Assembly (NCBI RefSeq): GCF_056712565.1
Contig: NZ_CM160072.1
Strand: one strand, 5' to 3'
Length of the DNA stretch: 64,000 bases
The notes below the pieces were generated by a model. It was given only the letters and a program-made list of their open reading frames with translations. It was not told the DNA's origin and did not search any database. Positions 11,164 to 52,925 of this stretch are shown one piece after another. The position numbers and the translations under genes are program-made. Within the stretch, counting starts at the first letter, position 1, and the number at the start of each line of letters is the position of its first letter.

Positions 11164-11179
11164 ATGTCCTTTTCCTGTA

Positions 11180-12442
11180 TCAGGCTTCCTGCATTGGGAA
11201 CCGAAGTTTAATGGTTGTACCCATCCTGGGTTTGTTAGGGCTCATTATTTCCAAGCCATAGCTCTCGCCAAATAACAACTTCAATCTATTTTTTATGTTG
11301 TTAATGCCAATACTGCCTTTTTGCAATTTTTGGTCGCCTGATAAAATGCGATTAATGGTATCTGGTGCGATGCCGTCGCCATTGTCAGTGACTTCAATAA
11401 TCACGTTCAGGCCATCGTCCGTGGCACGGATCAGCAGATGACTATTGCTATCCCTTGGCTCCACTACGTAGTTAAAGAAGTTTTCCACCAGCGGTTGCAG
11501 GATCAAAAACGGGCAGACTACATCCAGATATTTTTCCGGGATATCGCACAGGTAATCGAAACGGTCTCTCATACGCACTTTTTGGATCGACATATAGTTG
11601 TTGACGTAATTTATTTCATTACGCAGAGTAATCAGGCCGTGACTATTTTTACGTAACAAATAGCGCATCATGTCAGAGAAATCGTGCACCATTGTTTCGG
11701 TACGCTGCGCATCTTCAAGAAAAGCTAACCGGCCAATGGTATTTAATACGTTAAATAAAAAGTGTGGATTTATCTGATAAGAGAGCGCTTTAAATTCAGC
11801 TTCATGTAGTGAGCGTTCTATCTCTACACGTTTTCTTAACTCATTAGCCAGTGCAAGATCCTTTTTACGAAGTTCGCGTTGGATATTATTGGTGTGCGCT
11901 TGTTCGACCAGATAAGACGATACGTGTAGTAACGTCGAGGCAGTAGACTCAAAACGCTCATACGGCATGCGACGTGTATTCTGGTGCAAATTAATTAACC
12001 AAGGATTATCTTTCCAGACGTCATTATTATTCAGAATATAGGAAATGCTCTGTTCTTTCTCTTCTTCGACTTTTACCTGACCGGAAATAAAAGCACCGAG
12101 ATAATGATCGTTAATCATGATTGGGACAGCGAATTCGACAAAACCGCAGTGGCAGCGATAAACCACCGGTTTGCGAGCGTGCATCGCGGCACGGCCACCA
12201 GCGTTGTCGCTTTCATAACAGTGGTGCGCCAGTGTCGGGTTGAGACGCGAACGCATGCAGAAGTCTGAAAAACCGCTGGGCTTAGTGACCGGGATACCAT
12301 TCTCATCCACAACCACGAGCGCGATCATCATTGATTTTGAAAAGTTGTCCTGCAGGGTCTGAAGGCGTTTTACATCCAAAAACTCATTTAATTTGTATTT
12401 ATTCTTCATACTTTCAGCCTGCATTTTTAAAAACATAATCAT
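11180..12442 (-). CDS. Sensor histidine kinase with N-terminal PocR ligand-binding domain (LytS/YesM-type kinase core)
   Basis: PocR-like block (FSDFCMRSR...HHCYESD...[15 protein letters not shown]...GQV), then His-kinase region ([12 protein letters not shown]) and HATPase (DNGDGI...G.G). Confidence 0.8.
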
Positions 12443-12674
12443 ATATTTATAAATAATTTGTCGCGAAAAAATTGAAATGGATCACAGCAACAAAAACAGC
12501 TCCGGCTCTGAAAGTAATGCTTCGGTTATTTGCAAGGGATACTCCTTTTCAAACCTTGCTGAACCAGTGCAGATACACAGGGAAACGTATACCAGAACTG
12601 CCACAATACAAACGCCAGTTACTGGCGATACGAATGGAATGACGAGGCAGTCTGTCAGAAAGCCCCACATGAAC

Positions 12675-33321: not shown

Positions 33322-35106
33322 ATGTGGTCAGACAAAGAGTCATCAGAAGACTACCTAAATTTTGGTGAAGTATCTCAGTTAGCCGTGGATGTACTTACCA
33401 CGAAAGATATGTTACCAGTATCTATCGGAATTTTTGGAAACTGGGGGGCAGGTAAATCCTCTCTGTTAAAACTGATAGAGCAAAAACTTGAGCAAGACGA
33501 CAAAGATTGGATTGTTATCAATTTTGACTCTTGGCTCTATCAGGGGTACGACGACACCCGTGCCGCACTTCTTGAAGTCATCGCTACAGAATTGACAAAA
33601 GCTGCTGAAGGTAATTCAGCCCTTATATCAAAAACTAAGAGACTCCTTAGTCGAGTTGATGGTTTTAGAGCTATGGGATTACTAGCTGAGGGTACAGCTT
33701 TAATGGCAGGATTACCTACTGGCGGTTTGCTTTCTAGGGGGATTGGTGCATTAAGAAATATCACCGATGGCATCCAGAGCCAGGAAGAGTATGAGGCTTT
33801 AGGCAATATAGCTAAAGAAGGTAAAGAAACTGCTTGTGGTTTGATTAAACCACAAACAAAAAAAAGCCCCCCTCAGCAGATTGATGCCTTTCGTAAGGAA
33901 TATGGGGAAATTCTAGAAGAACTTGGAAAGCCACTCATTGTGGTAATAGATAACCTAGACCGCTGTCTCCCTGCCAATGCTATCCATACACTTGAAGCTA
34001 TCAGGCTATTCCTTTTCTTGACTAATACAGCCTTTATTATTGCAGCAGATGAGGACATGATTCGCTCTTCTGTGGCTGATTACTTCAAAGGGGCATCACA
34101 GCGCCATCAAATAGATTATCTGGATAAGCTAATCCAGGTTCCTATTCGGGTGCCTAAGGCTGGGGTCCGTGAGATCCGTTCGTATCTGTTCATGCTTTAT
34201 GCCATTGAACATGGCTTAGAAGGCGAAAAAATAACTATGCTCCGTGAGGGCTTAGAGAAGGCGTTACAGCAATCCTGGAAAGATGAACCAATCTCACGTC
34301 AGGAGGCCTTAAAAATGACTGGTGAAGCGGATGATAGCAACCTCGCGCTGGCGTTTGCGCGTGCTGACCGTATTGCTCCCATTTTAGCCAACTCTCCAAT
34401 TATTCATGGTAATCCCAGGATCGTTAAACGCTTGTTGAATGTTGTGAAAATGCGATCTCAAATTGCGAAGCGACGAGCAATGCCTTTGGATGAAGCAATT
34501 ATTACTAAGCTAGTAATTTTTGAACGCTGTGTTGGAGTGGATGGCACCGCTGATTTATATCATCTCGTGGATATTGAACAAGGTGTTCCCCAGATACTTA
34601 AACAGCTTGACGATAATGGCGGTCAAATACCTACTGATGCACCAAAGACATGGACTGATAGTCCAACGACTAAATCTTTCATCAGTCAATGGGCCCAACT
34701 TGAACCTCGTCTTGGTGGGATTGACTTAAGGGCCGCCATATATCTGTCCCGAGAAACTATGCCAATAGGTGCATATGTGGTTGGTTTATCGCCATCTGGA
34801 CGGGAAGTACTAAATGCACTAATTGAATTGAAAAACACTAGTTCTCCTACAGCAGAAAACCTTTTGAAAGCACTTCCTCGTGAGGAGCAAATACCTGTAA
34901 TGGAAGGTTTAATTAACCAGTTACGGCAGGTATCAGATTGGGATCGTAAGCCCAGAGGCTTTTCCGGTGCATGTCTGTTGGCCCGCTACTCAACAGATGC
35001 AGCCAGCATATTAATTCGTTATCTACAGGAATTACAGTTGGGGATGAAACGACCAGCGTGGATGACTGCAGCATTAAAAGATGAACAATGGAATAAGGAC
35101 GCTTAA
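33322..35106 (+). CDS. qatA: KAP-family P-loop NTPase (QatA-like)
   Basis: Walker A GNWGAGKSS followed by the KAP-characteristic INFDSWLY block; 594 aa. Confidence 0.8.
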   Translation: MWSDKESSEDYLNFGEVSQLAVDVLTTKDMLPVSIGIFGNWGAGKSSLLKLIEQKLEQDDKDWIVINFDSWLYQGYDDTRAALLEVIATELTKAAEGNSALISKTKRLLSRVDGFRAMGLLAEGTALMAGLPTGGLLSRGIGALRNITDGIQSQEEYEALGNIAKEGKETACGLIKPQTKKSPPQQIDAFRKEYGEILEELGKPLIVVIDNLDRCLPANAIHTLEAIRLFLFLTNTAFIIAADEDMIRSSVADYFKGASQRHQIDYLDKLIQVPIRVPKAGVREIRSYLFMLYAIEHGLEGEKITMLREGLEKALQQSWKDEPISRQEALKMTGEADDSNLALAFARADRIAPILANSPIIHGNPRIVKRLLNVVKMRSQIAKRRAMPLDEAIITKLVIFERCVGVDGTADLYHLVDIEQGVPQILKQLDDNGGQIPTDAPKTWTDSPTTKSFISQWAQLEPRLGGIDLRAAIYLSRETMPIGAYVVGLSPSGREVLNALIELKNTSSPTAENLLKALPREEQIPVMEGLINQLRQVSDWDRKPRGFSGACLLARYSTDAASILIRYLQELQLGMKRPAWMTAALKDEQWNKDA

Positions 35107-35858
35107 TGGGAACATCACAATCAAGTAAAGGTCCAGGAGGTGGCTCTCCGCTGGTTCCACCATGGGCTGATGATCAGCCACAGCAACCGTTACCCTCGCC
35201 GCAAGAAAGGAGGTTTGCGCCATTTCGAGAATCGTTGGGAAATGCGGTATCAAATGGAAATCGAGCAGATTTCAGAAAAGCCATAGGGCACTACGCGCGA
35301 AAAGCCTCCGGAGGGAGCAGTAACGCTGCTCGGCGATTAGGGAGTGTCACGCAAGCTGGGGCCGAATTATTTGGGGCTTTAGTGGGAATGCCTTCGGCTC
35401 CCGGAGAACCAAGCATCGATTTGGGCAGTTTGGCAGGCCTTCCATGCGAAATAGCAATATCAACTATTGCTCAAGCTTTAACATCACAGGATGGTGACTC
35501 AGAAAAGATCTGTGCGGCCATGAACCATGCTTTAGTGGAGGCTCTTGATGGCGTAGAAATTTTCGATCCTCAAAAAATAACTGATGGTGTGATTGTTGAC
35601 ACAATGATTGGTTATCTAGCGGAAAGTATTTTCCTTCAGATGGTAATGGATTCTAATAGGGCATGGAACAAAGCAGATACACCTTCAAAGGCAATTCATG
35701 CAGAAATTGAACTCCGGGAATTGATTAAAGTTGTTGTTGATAAACATATGGCACCAAAACTTGCCGGTAACATAAGATCGTTCACACGAAACCAAATGGT
35801 AAAAATTGAACGTCAGGCCATTATTGAGGCCTGGCAAGAATGGGAGGCATACCAGTGA
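35106..35858 (+). CDS. qatB: Protein of unknown function (QatB-like position), Gly/Pro-rich N-terminus
   Basis: Start overlaps the qatA stop (TAATG); no motif recognised; call rests on operon position. Confidence 0.55.
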   Translation: MGTSQSSKGPGGGSPLVPPWADDQPQQPLPSPQERRFAPFRESLGNAVSNGNRADFRKAIGHYARKASGGSSNAARRLGSVTQAGAELFGALVGMPSAPGEPSIDLGSLAGLPCEIAISTIAQALTSQDGDSEKICAAMNHALVEALDGVEIFDPQKITDGVIVDTMIGYLAESIFLQMVMDSNRAWNKADTPSKAIHAEIELRELIKVVVDKHMAPKLAGNIRSFTRNQMVKIERQAIIEAWQEWEAYQ

Positions 35859-37159
35859 CACAATTAGTTTTCCATCATAAACATCACCATTTGCCGCCAG
35901 CAAGTGAGAAAGTGTTACCTGTTCAGCTATATGGATTAAGTGGTCAGAGGCGCGGAGATATATCTGTTATCGGGAATCCTGCGATTGATCGGATCAGACG
36001 TTTGGGAGTACAGCTTCCAGCTAAGGTCATGGATTTTCTGAGTGTTGCATTAGCAGTAACTGCAGCAGATACTTTCGTTCAGCGTGAAAGTTCCGAGGAT
36101 GGTTGGACCCGCCAATTGTCGTTACGACTCCCCCTTCATGAACCATCCAGATGGATTAGTCTAAAGAAAGAACTTGAGAGTGCTTTGCATTTTCTTAGTG
36201 GAGACATCTGGGATTTCGAATTTTGTGACGATGGTTATGCACCGCCAGAGCCTTATAGCCAGCATTCAAGGCATCGTCTGATTAAGCTAAAAGGGCTTGA
36301 CTGTGTCAGCTTATTTTCAGGAGGTCTGGATTCAGCTATTGGTGCAATAGATCTTCTGGCTGCAGGGCGCGCTCCACTTTTGGTTAGTCATGCTTATAAG
36401 GGGGACAAGTCTCGTCAAGATCAGATCGCTGAAAAATTAAGTGGCCAATTTTCGCGCTTTGAGATTAATGCTGACCCACACATTTATCAAGGCGTGACTG
36501 ATATTACGATGCGAACTCGTAGCCTCAATTTTCTTGCCTTTGCGGCCGTAGGTGCTTGTGCCGTACAAGAGATATCTCAACAAGAAAAGATTGATTTGTT
36601 CGTACCTGAAAATGGATTTATCTCATTAAATGCACCACTTACTCCACGGCGGATAGGTTCGCTGAGCACACGAACAACACATCCACATTTTATTACGAGC
36701 ATACAAAAGATCTTTGATGCGCTCGGTATTTCTTGTCAAATAATCAATCCATATCAGTTTAAGACAAAAGGAAAAATGATCTCCGAATGTTCAAATAAGC
36801 AGCTCTTATCTAAAATTGTGGAAAGTACAGTATCCTGCAGTCATTGGAAACGAATGGGGCAGCAATGTGGGGTATGTATACCGTGTATCATTCGACGAGC
36901 ATCACTTCATGCAGGGGGAATTAGTAGAGATGTTGAATATATTTTCCAGTCCTTAGCTAAAGTAATGAATGAAATAGATCGCAGGGACGACCTGATCGCC
37001 CTTAGGATTGCGATCACGCAGAAATCGACTTTGAAAATAGGTACATGGATTGCCAAAAGTGGCCCTTTGCCTACGGCAGAATTTGATAATTTCAAGCAAG
37101 TATTTAAGGATGGCCTAGATGAGGTTGAAAGCTATTTACTGAGTGAGAACATAGTATGA
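35840..37159 (+). CDS. qatC: QueC-like PP-loop ATPase (QatC-like)
   Basis: PP-loop SGGLDS (LFSGGLDSAIGAIDLL) in a 439 aa protein larger than housekeeping QueC; overlaps both neighbours. Confidence 0.8.
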   Translation: MGGIPVTQLVFHHKHHHLPPASEKVLPVQLYGLSGQRRGDISVIGNPAIDRIRRLGVQLPAKVMDFLSVALAVTAADTFVQRESSEDGWTRQLSLRLPLHEPSRWISLKKELESALHFLSGDIWDFEFCDDGYAPPEPYSQHSRHRLIKLKGLDCVSLFSGGLDSAIGAIDLLAAGRAPLLVSHAYKGDKSRQDQIAEKLSGQFSRFEINADPHIYQGVTDITMRTRSLNFLAFAAVGACAVQEISQQEKIDLFVPENGFISLNAPLTPRRIGSLSTRTTHPHFITSIQKIFDALGISCQIINPYQFKTKGKMISECSNKQLLSKIVESTVSCSHWKRMGQQCGVCIPCIIRRASLHAGGISRDVEYIFQSLAKVMNEIDRRDDLIALRIAITQKSTLKIGTWIAKSGPLPTAEFDNFKQVFKDGLDEVESYLLSENIV

Positions 37160-37881
37160 GCATCGATATGCACTGTCATCTAGACTTATATCCTCGGCCA
37201 GACCTCGTGGCTGAAGAAAGTAAGCGTCGAGGGACTTATATTCTGTCGGTGACAACAACACCTAAAGCATGGCATGGTACTTCTTTATTGGCTAAAGAAA
37301 GTCAACGAATCCGAACTGCTCTTGGGCTACATCCTCAAATCGCGCATCAAAGATCGCATGAGTTAGACCTGTTTGATTCATTGCTTTCGGAAACTAAGTA
37401 TGTAGGGGAAATAGGGCTTGATGGTGGACAGGGATTTAAAGAACATTGGGATATTCAATTGAAAGTGTTCCGACACATTCTCAACAGTGTAAATCGGGCT
37501 GGTGGCAAGATTATGACTATCCATAGTCGGGGAAGTGCATCAGCGGTGCTTGATGAGATTGAAAATATCGATGGGGTGGCAATATTGCATTGGTTCACTG
37601 GAACACCTAAGCAGCTTGAAAGGGCAATTGATTTAGGATGCTGGTTCTCAGTGGGGCCTGCTATGCTCGATACAATAAAGGGTAAGGCCTTAGTTTTGAA
37701 AATACCCAAATCACGCATTCTTACAGAAACAGATGGGCCATTTGCTAAGTTTCGTAATGACCCACTAATGCCATGGGATAGTGGGATTGCAGAGAAACAG
37801 TTAGCCGCATTATGGGGGATTAGTCAGATGGAGGTTAATGCTCAGCTAGTTGATAATTTTAAGGTATTATGTACATCATAA
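37156..37881 (+). CDS. qatD: TatD-family metal-dependent nuclease (QatD-like)
   Basis: N-terminal HCHLD motif and downstream His/Asp/Glu pattern of the TatD TIM-barrel hydrolase; ATGA overlap with qatC. Confidence 0.85.
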   Translation: MSIDMHCHLDLYPRPDLVAEESKRRGTYILSVTTTPKAWHGTSLLAKESQRIRTALGLHPQIAHQRSHELDLFDSLLSETKYVGEIGLDGGQGFKEHWDIQLKVFRHILNSVNRAGGKIMTIHSRGSASAVLDEIENIDGVAILHWFTGTPKQLERAIDLGCWFSVGPAMLDTIKGKALVLKIPKSRILTETDGPFAKFRNDPLMPWDSGIAEKQLAALWGISQMEVNAQLVDNFKVLCTS

Positions 37882-38433: not shown

Positions 38434-39009
38434 TCAGGGCGTTTTCCAGATGACAGCTATAGTAAAAATGATCGCCAGACTGGCGAGAAAGCAGAGCGAA
38501 AGCGGGATTTTGTCCTTCAGTGTCAGGTTCAGCTCTTCTTCAACCCATGCTTTTTCAAATTCACAGTAAAATTTATAATGTGCGTACCAGTTACTTCCGA
38601 AGATCTGTTTGCTGATGACCGTGCCGTAAAACCGGGACATGATAGCGTCGATGGATTGTTGTGTACGCTGATAGTCAAAGTTTGCATCGCTTTTTACGTT
38701 GCGGTAGATGACTTCAAGTTCATTAAAAATTTTGGTCTGCTCAATCCCCGCACTTTCATAACTCTGCTTTTCCGAGTCATAAAACTGAATGTACATTGTA
38801 GCAACACCAAATATAATTAATATCGCGGAAATGACGTTTGTGGCCAGCTCAGGAATAAAAAGGGCGAACACACCGACAGCAAGAGAAATAAAGCTAATCC
38901 AACCGGATGCCTTACAAATCAGATCATAGGTGGCAAAGTTTTTCTTAGCGCCAAATCCAACGTTATAACCATGTCGGGCGATTAATTTCAGCATCTCTGA
39001 TTGCGTCAT
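38434..39009 (-). CDS. SLATT-like two-transmembrane effector protein
   Basis: 191 aa with two central hydrophobic helices (WISFISLAVGVFALFIPELATNVISAILIIFGVATMYI) and a C-terminal hydrophobic segment; 8 nt downstream of the SMODS gene. Confidence 0.6.
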   Translation of the reverse strand: MTQSEMLKLIARHGYNVGFGAKKNFATYDLICKASGWISFISLAVGVFALFIPELATNVISAILIIFGVATMYIQFYDSEKQSYESAGIEQTKIFNELEVIYRNVKSDANFDYQRTQQSIDAIMSRFYGTVISKQIFGSNWYAHYKFYCEFEKAWVEEELNLTLKDKIPLSLCFLASLAIIFTIAVIWKTP

Positions 39010-39016
39010 AAAAACC

Positions 39017-40345
39017 TCAGCTTATGGGAACTTCAATCTGGGCCCGGGCAACCACAACCTCATTTTTTATCACATAGCATTCTACCATGTGATCTCCGCG
39101 GAAGTCGGTAGTTTCTTTCTTCGTACAGTAGCCGCCGTCCGAAACGATTTGTCCCCGGATCATATTTCTTCTGCGTGCTTCGTCACCCACGTTCAGTACC
39201 TTCCACATAACGGTGTAGGGTTCCTCTGCCTCCATTTCTGTCAAGTCTGCCCGGAAAAGGAGAGATTTTCGAGCGGAGAGGCGGAATCTTCTGATAAGCA
39301 TCTCCCTCAGGCTTCTGGGAGGGAAACCATCCTGGGTTACGGTACAGTCAAGGTTGAGTGAGTACCTGATATCCACCGGATATTTATCCTCTATAAACTC
39401 TTCGGTATCGGTCCAGGGAACAGCATCTGCCGCATGCGATTCCAGACCAAGACGGGCTTCCATAATACCCACTTTACGTCTGGGGAAGGCTCGTCCGAAC
39501 ACTTTGCGCCAGCGGTCATTTTCACTGGCAGCCCCCTCAGCGTCTAAGGCATCACAACATAATTCATACGCGTGTTTCGCTGCCCGGCCAAACCAGGGAG
39601 ATTTAACACGTACATGCTGATTACTGCCTAACGCGAGATACCTTTCCTTTCTCTCCTCATTTGACAGATATTCAAAAAAGTCTCTGGCGAGGGCTCCCAG
39701 GCTGCCATTTCCGGTATTGTCATAATCTGATGTTGATGAAAGAAAGCGATACGCTAGTGTGTCTATCAGTAAGCCACCCATATTGACGCCATGCAGGTTC
39801 TTCCAGGCTCTGATCATTTTACACAGCTTGCGCAGATTATTGGATTTATCTCGCGAAAATGCGGTCATGGCCGCCTTTTCGTGAAGAGGTTTTGTAATGC
39901 GCCATGCTCCTCCATTATAGCTTTCAGGGAATTTAAAGCTGTCATCATCCTGTCTGAATACAGGTTGAACCTCGACATAAAAGTTTTTAAAGATGATCTG
40001 AACAACCAGTCTGTCCTTTTTCACAGTCTGGTCAGGATATTCTTCCGCCAGAATGTTTCTGACATCTGTAAGCAATGCAGACTGACCATTATCCTTACGG
40101 TTATAATATTCATACTGATTGGGGGGCATAATATAAAGCATATCCAGATCGGATATGCCTTTTATTGCGGTATGTCTGCCTACTGACCCCACTTTCAAGC
40201 GGTTTGCTACCCGGGAACTCGTTCCTCTGAACGCAAGATTTAATGACTTGGTTATTTTTCGATAGTGATAGCTGATCTTTTTTGCCTGTTTGAGGTCAAG
40301 ATTCAAATTTTCAAGAAATTCGCTGAACAATTCCCTGTGGCTCAT
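39017..40345 (-). CDS. SMODS-type (cGAS/DncV-like superfamily) nucleotidyltransferase with C-terminal sensor-like domain
   Basis: Pol-beta NTase motif GS-x10-DLD (GSVGRHTAIKGISDLDMLYI) in a 442 aa protein. Confidence 0.75.
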   Translation of the reverse strand: MSHRELFSEFLENLNLDLKQAKKISYHYRKITKSLNLAFRGTSSRVANRLKVGSVGRHTAIKGISDLDMLYIMPPNQYEYYNRKDNGQSALLTDVRNILAEEYPDQTVKKDRLVVQIIFKNFYVEVQPVFRQDDDSFKFPESYNGGAWRITKPLHEKAAMTAFSRDKSNNLRKLCKMIRAWKNLHGVNMGGLLIDTLAYRFLSSTSDYDNTGNGSLGALARDFFEYLSNEERKERYLALGSNQHVRVKSPWFGRAAKHAYELCCDALDAEGAASENDRWRKVFGRAFPRRKVGIMEARLGLESHAADAVPWTDTEEFIEDKYPVDIRYSLNLDCTVTQDGFPPRSLREMLIRRFRLSARKSLLFRADLTEMEAEEPYTVMWKVLNVGDEARRRNMIRGQIVSDGGYCTKKETTDFRGDHMVECYVIKNEVVVARAQIEVPIS

Positions 40346-42862: not shown

Positions 42863-43627
42863 GGTAGTGCATCCAATTAGTAGAATATGTGTTTTTCGAT
42901 AAATGCTCCGATCACTTTTTCGTGGATCTCAACTGAGCGTGAGAAGCAGATTGTTTACGAGCCAACCGCTTAATGTGGGTGCGTAGCGTCAGATTATTAC
43001 GCTCAATGCGTTGGGTGAATATTTTGCCGGTCAGATGCTTATTCTTCGGCACCACCCGGCCATAGCTGTCCCAGTCATCGCTGGTGAGCATGCCGATGTT
43101 GAAGGGTGTAAGCAGTGCCAGTAGCTCCCGGCACGTTTGATCGGTTCGGGGACCAAAAGTGTAGGCCAGTACACCGCCTGTTTTGGTGTTGTACGCGTAC
43201 CAGAGCCAGTGTAGCCGGGCTTTACTGCCAACGTAGCTCCATTGCTCATCAAGCTCGCAGATAAGCGCCACATCAGCATGGGCAACAGGCGAAGAAGTTA
43301 TTTGCGTTGGTGCGAGTTTTTTAAAGTCCGGATGATGGTGTTAATACCAATTTTCAGTGTCCTGGCGGTATCGCGAACCCCGGCACCATTAAAGGCCATT
43401 TCAGTGATCATCTCTTTCATACCCGGCTTACGTGCTTGATAAGTATAAGTGAGCTGAAACACACGGTGGCAGTCACGGCAGCGAAATCTGTCACGGCCTT
43501 TAGGGTTCTGACCATGGCGGTAAACCTGAGCTGACTGACAACGGGGACAATGAATATTAACGCTGGCCATGAGATAACCTCAAAAGCCCGTATTATACAT
43601 CAGATTCAACCAATTAGAGGCATCACC
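42863..43627 (-). mobile_element. Diverged IS1-family element (InsA 43298..43570, InsB 42912..43271)
   Basis: InsA-like zinc-finger protein (CPRCQS...CRDCHRVF) and InsB-like ORF; IS1-like terminal repeats GGTGATGCC.../...GGTAGTGCATCC. Confidence 0.8.
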
Positions 43628-43822
43628 CTTTCCTACATTCGTAGGACTTTGATTACATATAGCAAGGGTTAATTCTTATATACATAGAATAAATTAGGAA
43701 TATAATGAATTTTATCGTGACGACCTTATTTATAATTAATTTATATTGTCAGAGAAATTAGTGTCCACAACATGAAGCCTTACAAAGAGATTCTATGATT
43801 TAAAAAAAATAAGAGCCAGCTT

Positions 43823-45292
43823 ATGCATATCGATTCGACTGAAAAAAATAATAAACAAAAGTTGGGCTTGCTTGCGCTAACATCCATTGTCGTGAGCTCG
43901 ATGATCGGCAGCGGCGTTGACGGACTCCCCCAGAATATGGCGGAGAATTCTGCCGTGGGCCCGGTGGCGATAGCATGGATAGTCTGTGGTATCGGCATGT
44001 TTTTCATCTCCAGAACTTTTATCGTGCTGTCAAACATTAGACCTGATCTCCAGTCAGGAGTTTATATGTATGCCCGGGAAGGGTTCGGCCGATTTACGGC
44101 ATTTAACGTCGCCTGGGGCTACTGGCTGATGACTATATTCAGCAACGTCGCCTTTGCCATTATGGTGATGGATACGCTGAATTATTTCTTACCAGGTGAT
44201 TTCAAGGGAGGGAACAATATTCCTTCCGTTATCGGTGCCTCTTTGCTGATATGGGGATTCAACTTTTTAGTCCTCTCCGGTACCCGCATTGCCGGGTCGA
44301 TTAACATCGTCGGCACGCTGGCCAAACTGATCCCGCTGGTGGCCTTTATTATTATTCTCATGCTGTTTATGAAGTACACCACGTTCGCAGATAACGTCTG
44401 GGGGCACAGCGCGAGTAAGGCCAGTCAGGACCTAGGCTCTATTTTCTCACAGGTAACTTCACCGCTTAGCGTGGCACTCTGGAGCTTCATCGGCGTTGAG
44501 GGGGCTGTCGCTCTTTCCGGTCGGGCCAAAAATAAACGCGACGTGGGTAAAGCCACATTCATTGGCTTCGTTGTATCACTGATTATCTGTCTGCTGGTCT
44601 CCATCCTGCCGTTTGGCGTGCTGACTCAACATGAGCTCAGCGCAATTCCAACCCCATCCACCGCCGGTATTCTGAAGATTGTTGTCGGTGAATGGGGGAA
44701 GATTATGATTATCTTGGGGGTGCTGATTTCGGTGCTTACCAGCTGGCTGGCGTGGACCATCATCTGCGCCGAACTGCCTATGGTGGCCGCGCAGAACGGC
44801 ACATTCCCGAAACCGTTCAGCAAAAAAAATGTGAAGGGTTCGGCCTCGGTTTCGCTTTATATAAGCAGTGCGTTTATGCAAATCGTCGTACTTCTGGTCT
44901 ACTTTTCTAACGATGCCTGGCTTGCAATGCTGGCTATCTCTACCCTGACCGTTTTACCTGCGTATTTAATGACCACGGCATACCTGTTTAAACTATGTAT
45001 TAGCGGCGAGTATGCCAGCTATACCACGAATCACAGCCGCAGCGCCGCGCTGGTCAGCAGTATTATCGGCTTTGTATTCTGCCTGTTTATGTTCTACGCC
45101 AGTGAAATCAAATATCTGGCGATGGTTCCGGTGCTGCTTACGCTGGGCGTGCCCCTGTTTATCTGGGCAAGAAAAAAAGACGATCGCGCAGATAAAATAT
45201 TTACGCTACGCGAACTGGCATTTTTTATTTTACTGCTGGTCCTCGACATCATTGTTTTTATTCTACTGCATTATAAAACGATACATTTTTAG
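43823..45292 (+). CDS. APC-superfamily basic amino acid/polyamine antiporter (ArcD/PotE/CadB-like), copy 1
   Basis: 489 aa, 12-13 TM profile, conserved N-terminal block (LGLLALTSIVVSSMIGSGV) shared with copy 2. Confidence 0.75.
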   Translation: MHIDSTEKNNKQKLGLLALTSIVVSSMIGSGVDGLPQNMAENSAVGPVAIAWIVCGIGMFFISRTFIVLSNIRPDLQSGVYMYAREGFGRFTAFNVAWGYWLMTIFSNVAFAIMVMDTLNYFLPGDFKGGNNIPSVIGASLLIWGFNFLVLSGTRIAGSINIVGTLAKLIPLVAFIIILMLFMKYTTFADNVWGHSASKASQDLGSIFSQVTSPLSVALWSFIGVEGAVALSGRAKNKRDVGKATFIGFVVSLIICLLVSILPFGVLTQHELSAIPTPSTAGILKIVVGEWGKIMIILGVLISVLTSWLAWTIICAELPMVAAQNGTFPKPFSKKNVKGSASVSLYISSAFMQIVVLLVYFSNDAWLAMLAISTLTVLPAYLMTTAYLFKLCISGEYASYTTNHSRSAALVSSIIGFVFCLFMFYASEIKYLAMVPVLLTLGVPLFIWARKKDDRADKIFTLRELAFFILLLVLDIIVFILLHYKTIHF

Positions 45293-45396
45293 TCCAGATT
45301 AATTCACAGCAAGTTAAGGTGACGATAATGTCTGTTTCTTGGGCATGACATCCTCACAGTTAAATACTATCTGAACAGTAACCGTGGAGACACCTA

Positions 45397-47766
45397 ATGA
45401 AATTTAACCACAATCTTTTATTTATTTCCTCACAATATCTTGATGGCGACAACCCTTCGCAGCAGGTACTGGAAGAGCTTCAAACCGAACTCGCGGAACG
45501 CGGTTTTAAAATTCATATCACGCACCAGATCTCTGATGGATTAAAAATCATCGAAAAAAGCCCCCAATACAGCGGGATTGGTTTTTACTGGGAGCCAGAC
45601 AATCCGACCTTTGCAGAAGAGCTACAGCACTTTATCAGCATATTCCGCAAAAGAAATGCCACGACGCCGCTGATAATTTTCTCAGAACAGAATATTACCG
45701 ATCGTATCCCACTCGACGTCTTAAAAGAGGTCAGCGAATATGTTTATCTGTTCTCTGAATCCGCAGCCTTCACTGCCAATCGACTGTACTCCTTAGTCCA
45801 CCGCTATGCGGATAAGCTTCTTCCTCCCTACTTTAAAACCCTTAAGGACTTTACCGAGGACGGTGACTATTACTGGGACTGCCCGGGGCATATGGGGGGA
45901 ATGGCCTATCTGAAACATCCTGTTGGCATTGAGTTCATTAACTTCTTTGGCGAAAACATGATGCGCGCTGATATTGGCGTGGCTACCGCGGAGATGGGGG
46001 ATTATCTGATCCACGCCGGACCGCCTAAAAAATCGGAAGAAATTGCGGCCCGACTGTTTGGCTCTGATTGGACCTTCTACGGTGTTTCCGGCTCATCGGG
46101 GTCGAACCGTATTGTGGCCCAGGCTGCGGTTGGCGCAGATGAAATTGCCATTATTGACCGAAATTGCCACAAGTCACTTAATCATGGCCTGACCTTGTCT
46201 CAGGCAAGGCCGGTTTACCTGAAACCTACCCGCAACGCGTGGGGGCTGATTGGGCCTATCCCGACCGGGCGCCTGAAGAAGGCCAGTATTGATGCGCTGG
46301 TGGCAAACAGCCGACTGGCATCTGGTGCGGTCAGCCAGTCCCCGTCCTACGCCGTGGTAACCAACTGCACCTATGATGGCTTCTGTTATAACGTGAACGA
46401 TGTAGTCAGACACCTGGGTGAAAGCGCACCGCGCATCCATTTTGATGAAGCATGGTATGCCTATGCGCGTTTCCATCCGCTATACCAGAGTCGCTATGCA
46501 ATGGACGCGGAGGAAACGCCAAATCGTCCAACCCTATTCGCCGTACAGTCCACCCATAAAATGCTGCCCTCACTCTCCATGGCCTCAATGATTCATGTGA
46601 AGAAAAGCGATCGCGCGCCGCTTAATTTCGATGACTTTAACGATGCCTTTATGATGCACGGCACGACCTCACCCTACTACCCGATCATTGCATCAATTGA
46701 TGTGGCAGTAAGCATGATGGAGGGTGAATCCGGTTATTCGCTTGTGCAGGAGTCAATTGAAGAAGCGATTGCCTTCCGTAAAGCCGTGGTCAGCGTCAAG
46801 CGCCAGCTCCAGGAGCAGGAAGGTGGTGACGCCTGGTTCTTCGATGTGCTTCAGCCAACCGAAGTGCAGGACAGCGATTCTGGGCAGCGATACAGTTTTG
46901 AAGAGGCACCCGTATCGCTGCTGAGCCACAGCGCCGACTGCTGGTCGCTGCGCTCCGGTGAGCGCTGGCACGGTTTTGCCGATGATGATCTGGTCGAAAC
47001 CAACAGTATGCTCGATCCAGTAAAAGTGACCCTGACTTGTCCAGGGATCGGCCCGAAGGGAGAATACCAGAAAAACGGTATTCCGGGATATTTGCTGACC
47101 CGTTTTCTCGATGACCGTCGCATTGAAATTGCCCGTACTGGTGACTACACCGTGCTGATCCTGTTCTCCGTCGGCATCACCAAAGGCAAATGGGGAACTC
47201 TGATTGAAAGCCTGCTGGCCTTTAAAAAGCATTACGACAATGACGATCTGGCCACAGATGCTATCCCGTCGCTGAAAGCGCATTCTCCACACTACGACAC
47301 GCTAACCCTCAAGGAGCTATGTCAGATAATGCATGAAAAAATGGATGAGCTGGAGCTGATGTCGCATATCAACGACGCGGTAAACACCGATCCGGAACCA
47401 GTTATGACCCCGGCAGAAGCCTATCAGAAAGTCGTACGCTACAAAACCGAGCATATCCGGCTGGATGATTTTAGCGGCAGAATTGCCGCCAGCATGCTCG
47501 TCCCATATCCCCCAGGCATTCCTGTACTGATGCCGGGCGAACGGATGCCGCAAGGTAACAAGGGCATTATTGGCTATCTGCGCGCCCTGCAGGAATTCGA
47601 TAAGCAATTCCCAGGTTTTGAACATGAGATCCAGGGCGTTAACGTCGATGAAAACGGGGACTTCTGGGTCAGAGCGATTGTGGAAGAAGAACGCGATGGG
47701 CAGTCGCTACCCGGCCACATAACCTTTAAACGCCAGGTCTCTGGTATTAAAAAGGGCCGCCAGTAG
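45397..47766 (+). CDS. Fold-I PLP-dependent Orn/Lys/Arg decarboxylase (inducible AdiA/SpeF/CadA type), substrate unassigned
   Basis: 789 aa; collinear with AdiA-type decarboxylases (YWDCPGHMGG, DRNCHKS, STHKML PLP-lysine region, PYPPGIPVLMPGE). Confidence 0.8.
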   Translation: MKFNHNLLFISSQYLDGDNPSQQVLEELQTELAERGFKIHITHQISDGLKIIEKSPQYSGIGFYWEPDNPTFAEELQHFISIFRKRNATTPLIIFSEQNITDRIPLDVLKEVSEYVYLFSESAAFTANRLYSLVHRYADKLLPPYFKTLKDFTEDGDYYWDCPGHMGGMAYLKHPVGIEFINFFGENMMRADIGVATAEMGDYLIHAGPPKKSEEIAARLFGSDWTFYGVSGSSGSNRIVAQAAVGADEIAIIDRNCHKSLNHGLTLSQARPVYLKPTRNAWGLIGPIPTGRLKKASIDALVANSRLASGAVSQSPSYAVVTNCTYDGFCYNVNDVVRHLGESAPRIHFDEAWYAYARFHPLYQSRYAMDAEETPNRPTLFAVQSTHKMLPSLSMASMIHVKKSDRAPLNFDDFNDAFMMHGTTSPYYPIIASIDVAVSMMEGESGYSLVQESIEEAIAFRKAVVSVKRQLQEQEGGDAWFFDVLQPTEVQDSDSGQRYSFEEAPVSLLSHSADCWSLRSGERWHGFADDDLVETNSMLDPVKVTLTCPGIGPKGEYQKNGIPGYLLTRFLDDRRIEIARTGDYTVLILFSVGITKGKWGTLIESLLAFKKHYDNDDLATDAIPSLKAHSPHYDTLTLKELCQIMHEKMDELELMSHINDAVNTDPEPVMTPAEAYQKVVRYKTEHIRLDDFSGRIAASMLVPYPPGIPVLMPGERMPQGNKGIIGYLRALQEFDKQFPGFEHEIQGVNVDENGDFWVRAIVEEERDGQSLPGHITFKRQVSGIKKGRQ

Positions 47767-47840
47767 GCGGGGGAAAGAACAATACCGTCGGATCGCCTGC
47801 AATCCGACGGCAATATTATAGAATAGCTGAGGGAAACGTT

Positions 47841-49340
47841 ATGGCAGAGCAATCTTCAGATGTAAAAAATAGTGACAATAGCGCCGGAGGACATAAGCTG
47901 GGGCTTATATCCCTCATCGCTATTGTCGTTAGCTCCATGCTGGGAGGCGGCGTTTTCAGTCTGCCGCAAAACACGGCGGCCTCTTCTGCACTAGGGCCAG
48001 TAATCATTGCATGGATTATTGCCGGGATCGGTATTTATTTTATCGCAAACTCCTTTCGCGTACTATCAGATCTGCGCCCGGACCTTCAGGCTGGAGTGTA
48101 TATGTATGCCCAGGAAGGTTTTGGTTCCTTTATTGGCTTTAACGTCGCCTGGGGCTACTGGCTGATGACCGCATTTGGCAACGTTGCCTTTGCGGTAATT
48201 TTAATGGATGCTTTTAATCAGTTTATGCCGGGGGTTTTTACGGATGGTAATAATCTGAACTCCATTATCTGCGGCTCAGTGCTGATCTGGGGCTATAATT
48301 TTCTTGTTCTGTCCGGGACGAAAGTGGCCGGATTTGTTAACACCTTGGGAACCATCGCCAAGCTCGTCCCTCTGATCCTATTCGTATTACTGCTGGGTGT
48401 GCTGATCGATTATTCGGACCTGTTTAAAAACTTTTGGGGAGAATCACCCGCGATCCTCAGTGGCAACGGAAATGACGCCGCACCAGTATCGCTGCTGTCT
48501 CAGATTCTGGCACCGATGACCGTAACGCTCTGGGCCTTTATTGGCGTCGAGGGAGCGGTTGTTCTATCCGGACGTGCCAAAAATAAACAGGACGTAGGGA
48601 AAGCCACACTGATCGGCTTTCTGCTGGCGCTAATTATTTATATGTTAATGTCCATTCTGCCGTTCGGTGTAATGCCTCAGGCAGAACTAGCGCAGGTCAG
48701 TAACCCCTCTACCGCAGGCGTGCTCGCCCACGTTGTCGGTCAGTGGGGCGACTGGCTGATGAGCGCGGGGCTGATTATTTCTGTTCTGGCCGGCTGGCTT
48801 GCCTGGACCATGCTATGCGCTGAAATACCGATGGTCGCAGGACAGAAAGGCGCTTTCCCGCGCGCGTTTGCCCGAACGAACAGTAAACAGGCGGCCAATG
48901 TGTCACTGTGGGTTAGTAGCTTTGTGATGCAGGCGGCCATGTTACTTGTTTATTTTTCAAATAATGCTTGGACCACCATGTATAATATCAGTGCGCTGAT
49001 GGTTGTTCCGGCCTATATTACCACCACGCTGTATCTGACCAGTATTTGCAGAAACGGAAAATATGATCAGTATGCAAAAAAAGGCCGCAGGCTGGCTTTG
49101 TCCAGCGGTGTTTTAGGCTCGCTATTCTGTCTGTTTATTCTTTACGCCAGCCAGATTGAGTATGTTGCATTAATTCCTATCCTGTTGACCTGTGGTCTGC
49201 CGGTCTTTATCTGGTCAAGAAAAGAAAAAAATGATGGTCAGCCGATATTTACCAAAAAAGAGCTGATTTATCTGATTATGCTGTTGCTGTGCGATATTAT
49301 CGTCGTTGCCCTGTTTATTGGTGGATATTTAAAGGTATAA
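47841..49340 (+). CDS. APC-superfamily antiporter, copy 2 (paralog of 43823..45292)
   Basis: 499 aa, collinear with copy 1 along the whole length. Confidence 0.75.
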   Translation: MAEQSSDVKNSDNSAGGHKLGLISLIAIVVSSMLGGGVFSLPQNTAASSALGPVIIAWIIAGIGIYFIANSFRVLSDLRPDLQAGVYMYAQEGFGSFIGFNVAWGYWLMTAFGNVAFAVILMDAFNQFMPGVFTDGNNLNSIICGSVLIWGYNFLVLSGTKVAGFVNTLGTIAKLVPLILFVLLLGVLIDYSDLFKNFWGESPAILSGNGNDAAPVSLLSQILAPMTVTLWAFIGVEGAVVLSGRAKNKQDVGKATLIGFLLALIIYMLMSILPFGVMPQAELAQVSNPSTAGVLAHVVGQWGDWLMSAGLIISVLAGWLAWTMLCAEIPMVAGQKGAFPRAFARTNSKQAANVSLWVSSFVMQAAMLLVYFSNNAWTTMYNISALMVVPAYITTTLYLTSICRNGKYDQYAKKGRRLALSSGVLGSLFCLFILYASQIEYVALIPILLTCGLPVFIWSRKEKNDGQPIFTKKELIYLIMLLLCDIIVVALFIGGYLKV

Positions 49341-49427
49341 GTCCGAGTTAAATCTTTACTGGGCTAGTAATGCCGCCTTTTAAACAAGAAGGGCGGCAAT
49401 CTTACTGAAATTAGTATGCTGCAAATC

Positions 49428-50195
49428 GGTAATGCTGCCAACTTACTGATTTAGTGTATGATGGTGATTTTAAGGTGCTTGCGTGGCTTCCATTTCCATC
49501 AGATGTCCTTCCTGCTCCGCTACTGAAGGCGTGGTGCGTAACGGCAAAAGCACTGCCGGACATCAGCGCTATCTCTGCTCTCATTGCCGTAAAACATGGC
49601 AACTGCAGTTCACTTACACCGCTTCTCAACCCGGTACGCACCAGAAAATCATTGATATGGCCATGAATGGCGTTGGATGCCGGGCAACTGCCCGCATTAT
49701 GGGCGTTGGCCTCAACACGATTTTACGTCACTTAAAAAACTCAGGCCGCAGTCGGTAACCTCGCGCATACAGCCGGGCAGTGACGTCATCGTCTGCGCGG
49801 AAATGGGCGAACAGTGGGGCTATGTCGGGGCTAAATCGCGCCAGCGCTGGCTGTTTTACGCGTATGACAGGCTCCGGAAGACGGTTGTTGCGCACGTATT
49901 CGGTGAACGCACTATGGCGACGCTGGGGCGTCTTATGAGCCTGCTGTCACCCTTTGACGTGGTGATATGGATGACGGATGGCTGGCCGCTGTATGAATCC
50001 CGCCTGAAGGGAAAGCTGCACGTAATCAGCAAGCGATATACGCAGCGAATTGAGCGGCATAACCTGAATCTGAGGCAGCACCTGGCACGGCTGGGACGGA
50101 AGTCGCTGTCGTTCTCAAAATCGGTGGAGCTGCATGACAAAGTCATCGGGCATTATCTGAACATAAAACACTATCAATAAGTTGGAGTCATTACC
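49428..50195 (+). mobile_element. IS1, complete 768 bp copy (insA 49483..49758, insB 49677..50180)
   Basis: Canonical InsA ([21 protein letters not shown]...) and InsB; terminal repeats GGTAATGCTGCCAACTTACTGAT... and ...GTTGGAGTCATTACC. Confidence 0.9.
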
Positions 50196-50646: not shown

Positions 50647-51198
50647 TTATGAGCTGGCATCAGAAAAATGTGCCAGTAATTTTTTATTAATGACTTCAAA
50701 CAGTTCCTGTTCATCATGAGTCAGATAATCCCAGATTTCTTTCAGATACATGCTTTGTGCAAGAGTGAGCCTCTGAATAAAAAACATACCTTCAGATGTC
50801 AGACTGATTTTTTTAGCACGGCGATCCTCCCTGCTATCCGTCCTTTTTACATATCCGGCTTTTTCTAAAAAATCTGTAATGCGGGTAATATTAGTTCTGG
50901 TAAACTGAAGTTTCTGGCTTATCTCTGAAGGTGACAGACAATGGTTCTCCGCTGCGAATAATGTGGTGAGAACCATATATGCTGAGTGATTTATTCCATA
51001 CGCCCCCAGAAATTCAGATATATTATCCTGCATTCTTTTATTTGTGCGAATACAGAGCTGCATCAACAAATGTTCCCGAAAGGGATATGCGGGGTCTTTG
51101 TTTTTTTGGTGTCTGATTATTTTTTCTAATGTGTCTGTGTTATTCATTTCATTATTCTCCATATTACTGAAACACACTGTCTGTGTACAAGCGCGCAT
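50647..51198 (-). CDS. MarR-family transcriptional regulator, PapX/SfaX/FocX-like (probable start at the MENNEMNN ATG near 51162)
   Basis: Winged-helix MarR core (LSPSEISQKLQFTRTNITRITDFLEKAGYVKR...DRRAKKISLT); resemblance to fimbrial-operon-associated PapX-type regulators is from memory. Confidence 0.55.
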   Translation of the reverse strand: MRACTQTVCFSNMENNEMNNTDTLEKIIRHQKNKDPAYPFREHLLMQLCIRTNKRMQDNISEFLGAYGINHSAYMVLTTLFAAENHCLSPSEISQKLQFTRTNITRITDFLEKAGYVKRTDSREDRRAKKISLTSEGMFFIQRLTLAQSMYLKEIWDYLTHDEQELFEVINKKLLAHFSDASS

Positions 51199-51364: not shown

Positions 51365-52171
51365 TCAGGACACCGGAATAACCTGTTTCCACTTTTCTTC
51401 ATGTAAGCAAGGCGGTAAACCATCGTTGTTCGTGTGAGGTCGATAAACGTTGTAATAACCATTAATCCACTGGTTTATATCACGTACCGCATGGATAAAA
51501 TCACCATAACCACCTTTCGGAAGCCATTCATTTTTAAGGCTGCGAAAGACTCTTTCCATCGGCGAATTATCCAGGCCATTCCCTCTGCAACTCATACTTT
51601 GCATTACCCCATAACGCCAGAGTAACTTTCTGTATTTATTGCTTTTATACTGAACACCTTGATCTGAATGAAACAGCAGACGGCCATCACGTGATCGTGT
51701 TTCCAGTGCATTACGCAAAGCCCTACACACCAACTCAGCATCAGCGGTTAATGAGAGGGCTGAACCGGTAATCCGCCGTGAATATAAATCAACAACGAGC
51801 GCGAGCTAACACCATTTGTCATGCAGGCGAATAAAACTGATGTCGCCGCACCAGACGCGGTCTGGTGCGGCGGGGTGAAATTGCCGGTTCAGTAAATTTG
51901 GCAATGGCGGACTTTTGTCTTCGTTGACCCGGTAGTGATGTTTAACCATCTGTCGACTTGTCAGCCCGCATTCCCGCATCAGTCGTCGTGCCAGCCACCG
52001 GCCTGCATCAACGCTACTCTGGCGCAACATCTGACTGATTGCACGGCTACCGGCTGCGCCACGACTGAGAGCATGGAAAGCCCTCACCCGACTTCGTAAG
52101 TCAATTCTTTGCACATTAACAGGACGCGTCACCTGCGCGTAATAAACGCTACGGTTAGGTAATGACTCCAA
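51365..52171 (-). pseudogene. IS3-family transposase OrfB relic, frameshifted and truncated by the adjacent IS1
   Basis: Two ORFs (51806..52171 HTH region; 51365..51733 rve C-terminus [10 protein letters not shown]...) in different frames; upstream ORF abuts the IS1 end. Confidence 0.65.
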
Positions 52172-52925
52172 CTTATTGATAGTGTTTTATGTTCAGATAA
52201 TGCCCGATGACTTTGTCATGCAGCTCCACCGATTTTGAGAACGACAGCGACTTCCGTCCCAGCCGTGCCAGGTGCTGCCTCAGATTCAGGTTATGCCGCT
52301 CAATTCGCTGCGTATATCGCTTGCTGATTACGTGCAGCTTTCCCTTCAGGCGGGATTCATACAGCGGCCAGCCATCCGTCATCCATATCACCACGTCAAA
52401 GGGTGACAGCAGGCTCATAAGACGCCCCAGCGTCGCCATAGTGCGTTCACCGAATACGTGCGCAACAACCGTCTTCCGGAGCCTGTCATACGCGTAAAAC
52501 AGCCAGCGCTGGCGCGATTTAGCCCCGACATAGCCCCACTGTTCGCCCATTTCCGCGCAGACGATGACGTCACTGCCCGGCTGTATGCGCGAGGTTACCG
52601 ACTGCGGCCTGAGTTTTTTAAGTGACGTAAAATCGTGTTGAGGCCAACGCCCATAATGCGGGCAGTTGCCCGGCATCCAACGCCATTCATGGCCATATCA
52701 ATGATTTTCTGGTGCGTACCGGGTTGAGAAGCGGTGTAAGTGAACTGCAGTTGCCATGTTTTACGGCAATGAGAGCAGAGATAGCGCTGATGTCCGGCAG
52801 TGCTTTTGCCGTTACGCACCACGCCTTCAGTAGCGGAGCAGGAAGGACATCTGATGGAAATGGAAGCCACGCAAGCACCTTAAAATCACCATCATACACT
52901 AAATCAGTAAGTTGGCAGCATCACC
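52157..52925 (-). mobile_element. IS1, second canonical copy, inverted relative to 49428..50195 (insA 52595..52870, insB 52173..52676)
   Basis: InsA/InsB proteins identical to the first copy; ends read to within ~2 bp. Confidence 0.9.

Follow-up and report, generated by a model that had tools for sequence, protein, structure and literature searches.

A conserved antiporter–decarboxylase–antiporter locus in the pheU island of Escherichia coli and its possible link to histidine decarboxylation

Gene content, conserved order and family placement

Here we describe a locus at positions 42,863 to 50,195 of a 64,000-nucleotide stretch of DNA (NCBI RefSeq assembly GCF_056712565.1, contig NZ_CM160072.1), in which the gene of a pyridoxal 5'-phosphate (PLP)-dependent amino-acid decarboxylase is flanked on each side by an antiporter gene; the whole stretch is called the window below. 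The host background is the pheU island of B2/extraintestinal pathogenic E. coli (ExPEC). The region (8 kb) was 100% identical to that of S88, APEC O1, MS7163 and other E. coli strains, and the RefSeq annotation of S88 contains the same three genes together with two transposases of the insertion sequence (IS) IS1.

Exactly three long open reading frames (ORFs), of 489, 789 and 499 aa, were present in the ORF listing, all in one direction. The initial annotation, a first reading of the sequence, had placed two antiporters and a decarboxylase here, and all three genes were confirmed to be intact at these positions:

43823..45292, + strand: antiporter A, 489 aa, amino acid-polyamine-organocation (APC) superfamily, TIGR00905 subfamily; the faster-evolving paralog
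45397..47766, + strand: PLP-dependent decarboxylase, 789 aa, wing-domain LAOdc fold, of a subfamily without a name; probable histidine decarboxylase
47841..49340, + strand: antiporter B, 499 aa, TIGR00905 subfamily; the more conserved paralog, present in every lineage

The intergenic gaps measure 104 nt between A and the decarboxylase gene and 74 nt between the latter and B, and we infer that the three genes are co-transcribed. Two features of decarboxylase/antiporter modules were found, namely an APC exchanger adjoining the decarboxylase (two TIGR00905 genes on the same strand) and a PLP decarboxylase with intact catalytic residues. The gene content, a decarboxylase with two antiporters, bears out the acid-resistance-type amino-acid decarboxylase/antiporter module that the initial annotation had proposed. 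The inner 5.8 kb was present at a minimum of 99% identity and with intact ORFs in 494 of the 5426 complete E. coli genomes (~9%, about 1/11), and among the carriers are CFT073, the type strain ATCC 11775 and well-known urinary-tract and meningitis strains. Two E. coli variants that were compared, ~1% apart, are separated by 40 synonymous-type and 16 non-synonymous changes with zero stops and zero disrupted genes. Strain S88 additionally encodes adiA-adiY-adiC, cadCBA and speF-potE; the locus is therefore extra to these systems, rather than a copy of one of them moved elsewhere, and the initial distinction from cadBA, adiAC and speF-potE holds.

The order of the genes was compared by a tblastn survey, with more than 80 loci fetched from public genomes (denoted by L numbers where needed). 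The order A–decarboxylase–B was found in Providencia rettgeri (on a plasmid), Hafnia, Commensalibacter intestini, Klebsiella sp., Proteus penneri, Acinetobacter (with A inverted), Bordetella avium, B. trematum and B. genomosp. 12, and in a metagenome contig (87% identical). A orthologs lie upstream of the decarboxylase in eight other genera, being inverted in Acinetobacter, and identity to the E. coli proteins in the surveyed loci with this order was 61–76% for A, 67–81% for the decarboxylase and 76–86% for B. Because the same order is conserved across genera, and has a parallel in the hdcT1-hdc-hdcT2-hisRS histidine cluster of Morganella and other Gram-negatives (PMC12072131), the three-gene layout is not unusual, as had been supposed, but represents the conserved ancestral order of the family. 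The Morganella cluster resembles the E. coli locus in its antiporter–decarboxylase–antiporter order, two paralogous putative exchangers and the same proposed physiology, but differs in having a group II PLP decarboxylase, AdiC-like HdcT-type antiporters and a histidine-tRNA ligase (HisRS) gene. The group II enzyme of the Morganella type is a protein of ~378 aa with an unrelated fold.

The 789-aa protein is composed of PF03709, PF01276 and PF03711 (OKR_DC_1 N, major and C domains), with the PLP lysine K388 in an intact STHK motif and with DEAW and the TTSP phosphate loop conserved. Its best NCBIfam match, the AdiA model NF011603, reached 739.9 bits against a cut-off of 1167, and the models for lysine decarboxylase (Ldc; LdcC 621 against 968 bits, CadA 560 against 1056 bits) and ornithine decarboxylase (Odc; 429 and 425 bits, cut-offs 794–1310) were missed as well, so that the protein passes none of the NCBIfam equivalog cut-offs. 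Identity was 39% to AdiA, 36% to CadA, 32% to SpeF and 62% to a Photobacterium enzyme considered below. Since AdiA and CadA themselves are only 36% identical, the family appears to rank beside the arginine decarboxylases (Adc) and Ldc, within neither of them. A phylogeny had been suggested in the initial annotation, and a neighbour-joining tree puts the enzyme in its own clade outside AdiA. Specifically, the family formed one clade, next to a sister clade of ~50% identity (Dyella, Lysobacter, Acidobacteria, Methanothrix), with the AdiA clade outside both; neither placement in the AdiA clade nor an AdiC-type partner was found. Members of at least 59% identity occur in Enterobacterales, Bordetella, Alcaligenes, Acinetobacter, Orbus, Alphaproteobacteria, Victivallaceae, Amphritea, Shewanella and Photobacterium, and no specific name for the family was present in the database sources examined. 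In addition, the core family shares a conserved basic C-terminal extension (…F[KN]R…S..IKKGRQ), encoded by the last 25 codons (window 47692-47766) and lying beyond the end of AdiA. It occurs in members as far apart as E. coli and Amphritea, Victivallaceae have a close variant of it (…IKKGRM), and it is missing in the Photobacterium, Shewanella and Enterobacter-plasmid members.

Both antiporters pass the TIGR00905 basic amino acid/polyamine antiporter model (cut-off 409; A 487 and B 493 bits) and share 55% identity, in agreement with the paralogy noted initially. All more specific models were missed, including ArcD TIGR03810 (cut-off 591; A 441, B 450 bits), the HdcP-type histidine–histamine model NF040512 (cut-off 725; A 437, B 415 bits), AdiC (cut-off 574; A 145, B 155 bits), CadB (A 111, B 113 bits) and PotE (A 110, B 102 bits), and a comparison of B with a collection of 5.8 billion proteins returned generic names only. 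A and B form two separate orthologous clades, each tracking the same taxa. The sole antiporter is of B type in Victivallis (~58% identity to B), Amphritea, Shewanella and a Salmonella plasmid, and because several lineages have the B-type gene alone, B appears to be the core exchanger, with A as an accessory paralog of long standing. Among the residues that correspond to the AdiC substrate site, only four distinguish A from B, all by Ser/Gly-type changes, and both proteins differ from AdiC by A96M, C97T, M104F and T361V.

A FomA-family porin-like outer-membrane gene (NF049910, 388 bits) lies 3' of B in Providencia, Acinetobacter and two Bordetella species and is absent from the E. coli, Hafnia and Klebsiella loci; where present, it would give a four-gene unit spanning both membranes. 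The porin genes are located as follows:

L002 13582-14607: FomA-family porin gene
L011 ~12049-13014: FomA-family porin gene
L014 ~11130-12119: FomA-family porin gene
L015 ~11149-12117: FomA-family porin gene

In Hafnia (L008 13758-17931), an apparent oxalyl-CoA decarboxylase and formyl-CoA transferase set, consisting of a thiamine pyrophosphate enzyme flanked by two CoA-transferase family III genes, lies ~2 kb from the module and represents another proton-consuming decarboxylation pathway.

Proposed substrate and mechanism

The comparative evidence on the substrate comes from Photobacterium. In Photobacterium kishitanii (L092), a TIGR04298 histidine–histamine antiporter (738 bits, just below the cut-off of 750) is followed by the 62%-identical homolog of the E. 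coli decarboxylase and then by a HisRS paralog (TIGR00442, 449 bits), and a second independent contig (L096) displayed the same antiporter–homolog–HisRS arrangement. An extra HisRS beside a decarboxylase and an exchanger characterises histidine decarboxylase clusters. In the neighbour-joining tree, the Photobacterium clade falls inside the decarboxylase family. Of 65 discriminating columns, conserved within the core family and within the AdiA clade but with different residues in the two, Photobacterium agrees with the family in 53 and with AdiA in 2; many of the 65 lie next to the invariant active-site motifs WDCPGH, DIGVATAEMGD, TNCTYDG, VQSTHKMLP and HGTTSP. The 'novel enzyme' of Bjornsdottir-Butler and colleagues (2020), 'hdc2', is probably this Orn/Lys/Arg-family protein. 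The 90%-identity cluster of the Photobacterium protein comprises many P. phosphoreum, one P. carnosum, P. kishitanii and P. toruni. This species mix matches the distribution of hdc2 given in PMC8671102, which attributes the Photobacterium 'hdc2' to Bjornsdottir-Butler et al. 2020.

The putative substrate pocket of fold-type I ornithine decarboxylase comprises D167/168, E172, E532, D535 and E697 (bioRxiv 10.64898/2026.06.11.731642, citing Kanjee et al. 2011). Mapped onto the family through E. coli SpeF, these positions correspond to D202, A207, A579-R580, G582-D583 and E744, and the E. coli and Photobacterium pockets are identical except at 207 (Ala in one, Ile in the other); the E. coli enzyme shares both the clade and the signature and pocket residues of the 'hdc2' type. 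The combination is unique to the family, with D202 being Odc-like (Ser in Adc and Ldc) and E744 being as in E. coli AdiA and Odc. A proposal that A579, in place of the Ldc/Odc glutamate (CadA E526, SpeF E532), indicates a non-cationic substrate was rejected, for E. coli AdiA has Thr-Arg there and the change is thus compatible with arginine. According to the literature, the determinants of substrate choice in fold-type I decarboxylases are not yet understood (bioRxiv 10.64898/2026.06.11.731642).

Our analyses strongly suggest that the locus encodes a proton-consuming system of amino-acid decarboxylation and exchange. On balance, and with modest confidence, the comparisons point to L-histidine as the main substrate of this proton-consuming system, with histamine as product, an amino acid that the initial list of candidates (Arg, Orn, Lys) had left out. 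It is conceivable, albeit somewhat short of probable, that the family adds to the known histidine decarboxylases of bacteria a third type with a structure of its own, the wing-domain LAOdc fold, which would be widespread in gut-associated Proteobacteria and carried by ~9% of complete E. coli genomes. Compared with the Photobacterium 'hdc2' cluster, the E. coli locus has the same decarboxylase subfamily (62% identity, nested, 53/65 residues) in an operon with an APC exchanger, but in the former there are one AdiC-like HdcT-type antiporter (TIGR04298) and a HisRS paralog, whereas E. coli has two ArcD/HdcP-like TIGR00905 antiporters and no HisRS, and its enzyme carries the 25-aa basic C-terminal tail (…IKKGRQ).

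In the proposed cycle, the inner-membrane exchanger B, with A in parallel, would import the amino acid against its amine, and the cytoplasmic PLP enzyme would strip the carboxyl group, using one proton per turnover. The amine, being more positively charged, would exit through the exchanger, which would make the exchange electrogenic, and the outcome would be a raised internal pH and a membrane potential. Electrogenic decarboxylation and exchange of this kind are established for arginine/agmatine in E. coli and for histidine/histamine in lactobacilli. A would have arisen by an ancient duplication and would assist B with the same substrate pair or one very close to it, probably with other kinetics, pH range or regulation; one pair handled with such differences, as has been proposed for hdcT1/hdcT2, is suggested by the near-identical predicted binding sites of A and B together with the fact that B evolves more slowly. 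Gene integrity, family placement, conserved synteny and the histidine-specific context of Photobacterium are shown by the data, whereas we infer from these comparisons which substrate E. coli uses, in which direction exchange runs, how A and B share the work and whether the locus confers acid resistance.

Other systems with uneven numbers of components are known. The arginine deiminase cluster of Lactococcus lactis keeps the paralogous exchangers ArcD1 and ArcD2, which are thought to differ in role; it is alike in having two paralogous exchangers of the same APC subfamily in one catabolic cluster, but serves a deiminase pathway and not a decarboxylase, in another organism and with another gene order. 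Three-component systems for Lys/Orn in Lactobacillus saerimneri 30a and for Arg/His in clusters of gut bacteria (PMC8465708) also break the one-enzyme/one-exchanger rule, but have two decarboxylases and one antiporter, the reverse of the E. coli locus. Distant relatives of the E. coli enzyme (Dyella, Methanothrix, L098) likewise occur in two-decarboxylase clusters. Such clusters, with a relative, an AdiA-like paralog and an AdiC-like antiporter, were observed in L046-L051, L043, L044, L050 and L098, the relative having ~50% identity in Dyella, Lysobacter and Methanothrix and 59% in L098, and in L048 an antiporter passing the AdiC cut-off sits between the two enzymes. Since an AdiA-like paralog would be redundant if both enzymes used arginine, this arrangement suggests that the two may do different jobs or use different substrates, much like the enzymes of the Arg/His three-component systems (PMC8465708).

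Several observations weigh against histidine as the substrate in E. coli. HisRS and an HdcT-type antiporter, the histidine-specific context of 'hdc2', were absent from the window and from ~15 core-family loci, and A and B scored no better on the histidine–histamine model NF040512 than on ArcD. The identification of the Photobacterium homolog with hdc2 is itself putative, being based on matching gene context and species distribution. A switch of substrate at 62% identity is possible, as illustrated by the lysine decarboxylase nested in the Adc cluster (PMC6257575). The residues A579-R580-T-G-D are nearer to T571-R572-T-T-D of E. coli AdiA than to the E-K of Ldc, Odc and the non-enterobacterial AdiA-like clade. 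In Dyella amyloliquefaciens, the 48%-identical relative is directly followed by an antiporter passing the AdiC cut-off, and the tandem evidence thus cuts both ways. Moreover, the literature yielded neither expression nor phenotype data on these E. coli genes. Two further arguments were set aside: A and B score equally, within noise, on ArcD and HdcP-2, which gives no means of choosing between arginine and histidine, and a 'natural swap' in Shewanella, where the decarboxylase occurs with a B-type antiporter, adds little, the Shewanella enzyme being 63% identical to that of Photobacterium and no closer to it than the E. coli enzyme is.

The main rival explanation, which we regard as unlikely, is a second arginine/agmatine system, with the enzyme as a divergent biodegradative Adc and with A and B as ArcD-like arginine/agmatine or arginine/ornithine exchangers. 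AdiA is the best match both in NCBIfam (740 bits) and among solved structures in the PDB (7p9b, 2vyc), but that score lies far under 1167, and at 39% identity the enzyme is no nearer to AdiA than AdiA is to CadA. Relatives are called 'arginine decarboxylase' in some sources, yet these names are automatic and not experimental. Among the equivalog models ArcD is marginally the highest for A and B, arginine remains in play because A-R-T-G-D resembles T-R-T-T-D of E. coli AdiA, and the Dyella relative has its partner passing the AdiC cut-off; in contrast, the clade is separate from AdiA, the 65 conserved columns differ, some of them next to the PLP lysine, and the Photobacterium members have a histidine-specific context. 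In addition, S88, identical across the region, already has adiA-adiY-adiC, and the deeper relatives adjoin an AdiA-like paralog that would be redundant if both used arginine. The adiA-adiY-adiC system provides the closest characterised enzyme in sequence and structure, with the same wing, PLP and C-terminal domains and the same logic of decarboxylase plus APC exchanger, and the enzyme of the E. coli locus is probably decameric like AdiA; however, besides the 39% identity and the separate clade, that system has one antiporter of another APC subfamily and an AraC-type regulator, AdiY. The Adc group is affected by horizontal transfer and 'hidden paralogy', and a lysine decarboxylase nests there (Carriel et al., PMC6257575).

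Less probable still is a broad or dual-substrate system, in which one promiscuous basic-amino-acid decarboxylase would be served by two exchangers with different pairs (e.g., lysine/cadaverine and ornithine/putrescine), as a mirror image of the L. saerimneri system, or in which a non-canonical basic amino acid would be used. The long retention of both antiporters in at least nine genera argues against redundancy and would suit this explanation, as would the family's own pocket combination (D202 Odc-like, E744 Odc/AdiA-like, the Ldc/Odc glutamate at 579 unmatched) and the extended, permissive channel in fold-type I decarboxylases (bioRxiv 10.64898/2026.06.11.731642). Nevertheless, A and B are near-identical at the AdiC-site equivalents, with four Ser/Gly-type changes, which is easier to reconcile with one pair than with two, B suffices in several lineages, and dedicated Lys and Orn systems are already present in S88. 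The histidine context of Photobacterium speaks against broad substrate use as well.

Island context, insertion sequences and non-coding features

In S88, the locus lies in a ~64-kb island between cadC and the tRNA-Phe gene pheU, with cadCBA at the far end of the island, outside the window. We interpret the locus as an intact operon that was acquired horizontally, and its three protein subfamilies recur together across Proteobacteria. The elements around the three genes are the following:

42863..43627, - strand: diverged IS1-family element, left boundary in E. coli; transposase frameshifted in this strain
43679..43706, + strand: sigma-70-like promoter candidate upstream of A, TATACA-16-TATAAT, 10/12 matches
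49372..49397, + strand: GC-rich hairpin (GCCGCCTT...AGGGCGGC), 32 nt 3' of the B stop, read by eye
49428..50195, + strand: canonical IS1, 768 bp, right boundary in E. coli
56162-56237 of the window: tRNA-Phe gene pheU

Positions 42863 and 50195, the ends assigned to the module initially, are both IS1 ends. The diverged element has the terminal repeats GGTAGTGC.../...GCATCACC, and its transposase is frameshifted according to RefSeq in S88 and CFT073 and intact in strain 600029. The canonical IS1 has an inverted twin of 100% identity at 52158-52925. The proposal of the initial annotation, namely that 42863-50195 is an IS1 composite transposon that entered the island as a unit, appears very improbable. 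Practically every E. coli carrier does have IS1-family elements at both ends, and in ST361, a non-B2 bloodstream isolate (L006 6860-13541), the module adjoins lpxM rather than pheU. However, the diverged and canonical IS1 share 56% identity and differ in their terminal inverted repeats, so that they are not two copies of the same IS, and one transposase is unlikely to act on both. The check for target-site duplications proposed for 42863 and 50195 was carried out, and no duplication of 8–9 bp was found there, around any single IS1 copy, or around any pair of the three; the flanks of the composite are TCAAATCTC and GACATTGTC, and matching flanks occurred at no copy. The canonical IS1 instead forms a pair with its inverted twin at 52158-52925, the complete module was not found on any E. 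coli plasmid, and outside E. coli the operon occurred without IS1 in every other genus seen.

The DNA left of the diverged IS1 also speaks against transposition as a unit, because it is conserved between strains, ST361 included (a truncated dehydrogenase gene; BCCT, DUF2254). In strain 600029, a BCCT transporter, DUF2254, acuR and a dehydrogenase come left of the intact diverged IS1. Among the three alternative contexts inspected, ST361 has BCCT and DUF2254 as left neighbours, as has a strain with the pheU island, which indicates that a larger block is shared. The DNA right of the canonical IS1, in contrast, differs in every strain compared. Mobilisation as an IS1-bracketed unit is therefore unsupported, and the pattern is what would be expected of a larger island block trimmed and rearranged by IS activity, not of IS1-to-IS1 transposition. 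In ST361, an IS3 insertion has cut the diverged IS1 to a 72-bp remnant, which shows ongoing IS-driven reshuffling around the operon. Furthermore, the two inverted identical IS1 copies (49428-50195 and 52158-52925) bracket 1962 bp with an MprA-like MarR regulator gene and an IS3 transposase fragment, a segment that resembles a composite transposon yet lacks a target-site duplication.

With regard to regulation, promoter-like sites in the region are no more numerous than in shuffles, and 43679-43706 is to be read as a candidate only. The 450 bp upstream of A (43373-43822, partly inside IS1) have 39% G+C in E. coli, and the equivalent regions in other Enterobacterales (L002, L008, L013, L054) have 21–32%; an AT-rich leader such as this would be typical of horizontally acquired promoters bound by H-NS. 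That H-NS silences the operon and that global acid or anaerobic regulators control it are no more than guesses. An Rfam scan upstream of A gave a single chance-level match, upstream sequences could not be aligned between genera, no small or leader ORF upstream of A was common between genera, and no regulator gene was conserved beside the operon in the loci compared. The MprA-like MarR gene (50647-51198; MprA model 121 bits, below the cut-off of 157) was rejected as the regulator of the module, as it lies inside the neighbouring IS1 pair and is not beside the module in CFT073, ST361 and 600029. The hairpin at 49372-49397 may mark the operon end, judged from its sequence and position; a terminator scan passed over it, as the stem lacks a following T-run. 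Another hairpin, at 47783-47812 between the decarboxylase gene and B, was discarded, being no more stable than shuffles (z = -0.7).

The same island contains a grp glycyl-radical propanediol-utilisation microcompartment operon, grpA-grpS (S88 annotation; window ~8076-28430), and a Qat anti-phage system with KAP NTPase, QatB, QatC and QatD (window 33322-37881, per the S88 annotation of the identical sequence). On the opposite strand, proteins with an SLATT domain and a nucleotide-binding domain (window 38434-40345, S88 annotation) are probably a second defence pair.

Novelty and implications

A search of the literature on the E. coli genes and locus returned nothing relevant describing the specific system, and the initial statement that its substrate is unassigned stands. 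The kind of system is already known; what is new is the decarboxylase subfamily and the two co-evolving antiporter subfamilies, all without names, as well as the conserved A–decarboxylase–B order with its optional porin gene and its presence in major ExPEC lineages. A systematic survey of gut histamine secretors (PMC8465708) covered only pyruvoyl and group II PLP histidine decarboxylases and would therefore have missed the whole of this decarboxylase family.

If histidine is indeed the substrate, common ExPEC and commensal B2 E. coli would themselves supply histamine, a host-active amine, in the gut and urinary tract, and current marker-gene surveys would be blind to a histamine source relevant to inflammation, pain and allergy. 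CFT073, S88, APEC O1 and the type strain would then make histamine and export it via two dedicated, non-redundant exchangers, and in some genera a FomA-type porin would be dedicated to the export system. Such activity could also explain the weak histamine production of 'hdc-negative' Hafnia, Proteus, Providencia, Serratia, Acinetobacter and E. coli. Regardless of which amino acid is used, the locus would be a fourth basic-amino-acid decarboxylation module of E. coli beside adi, cad and speF, and its distribution among strains may help to explain why they differ in acid tolerance. With A and B stably paired to one enzyme, the locus provides a clean system for asking why some pathways need two antiporters, as for hdcT1/hdcT2, and the decarboxylase family offers a case for finding the determinants of substrate choice in fold-type I decarboxylases.

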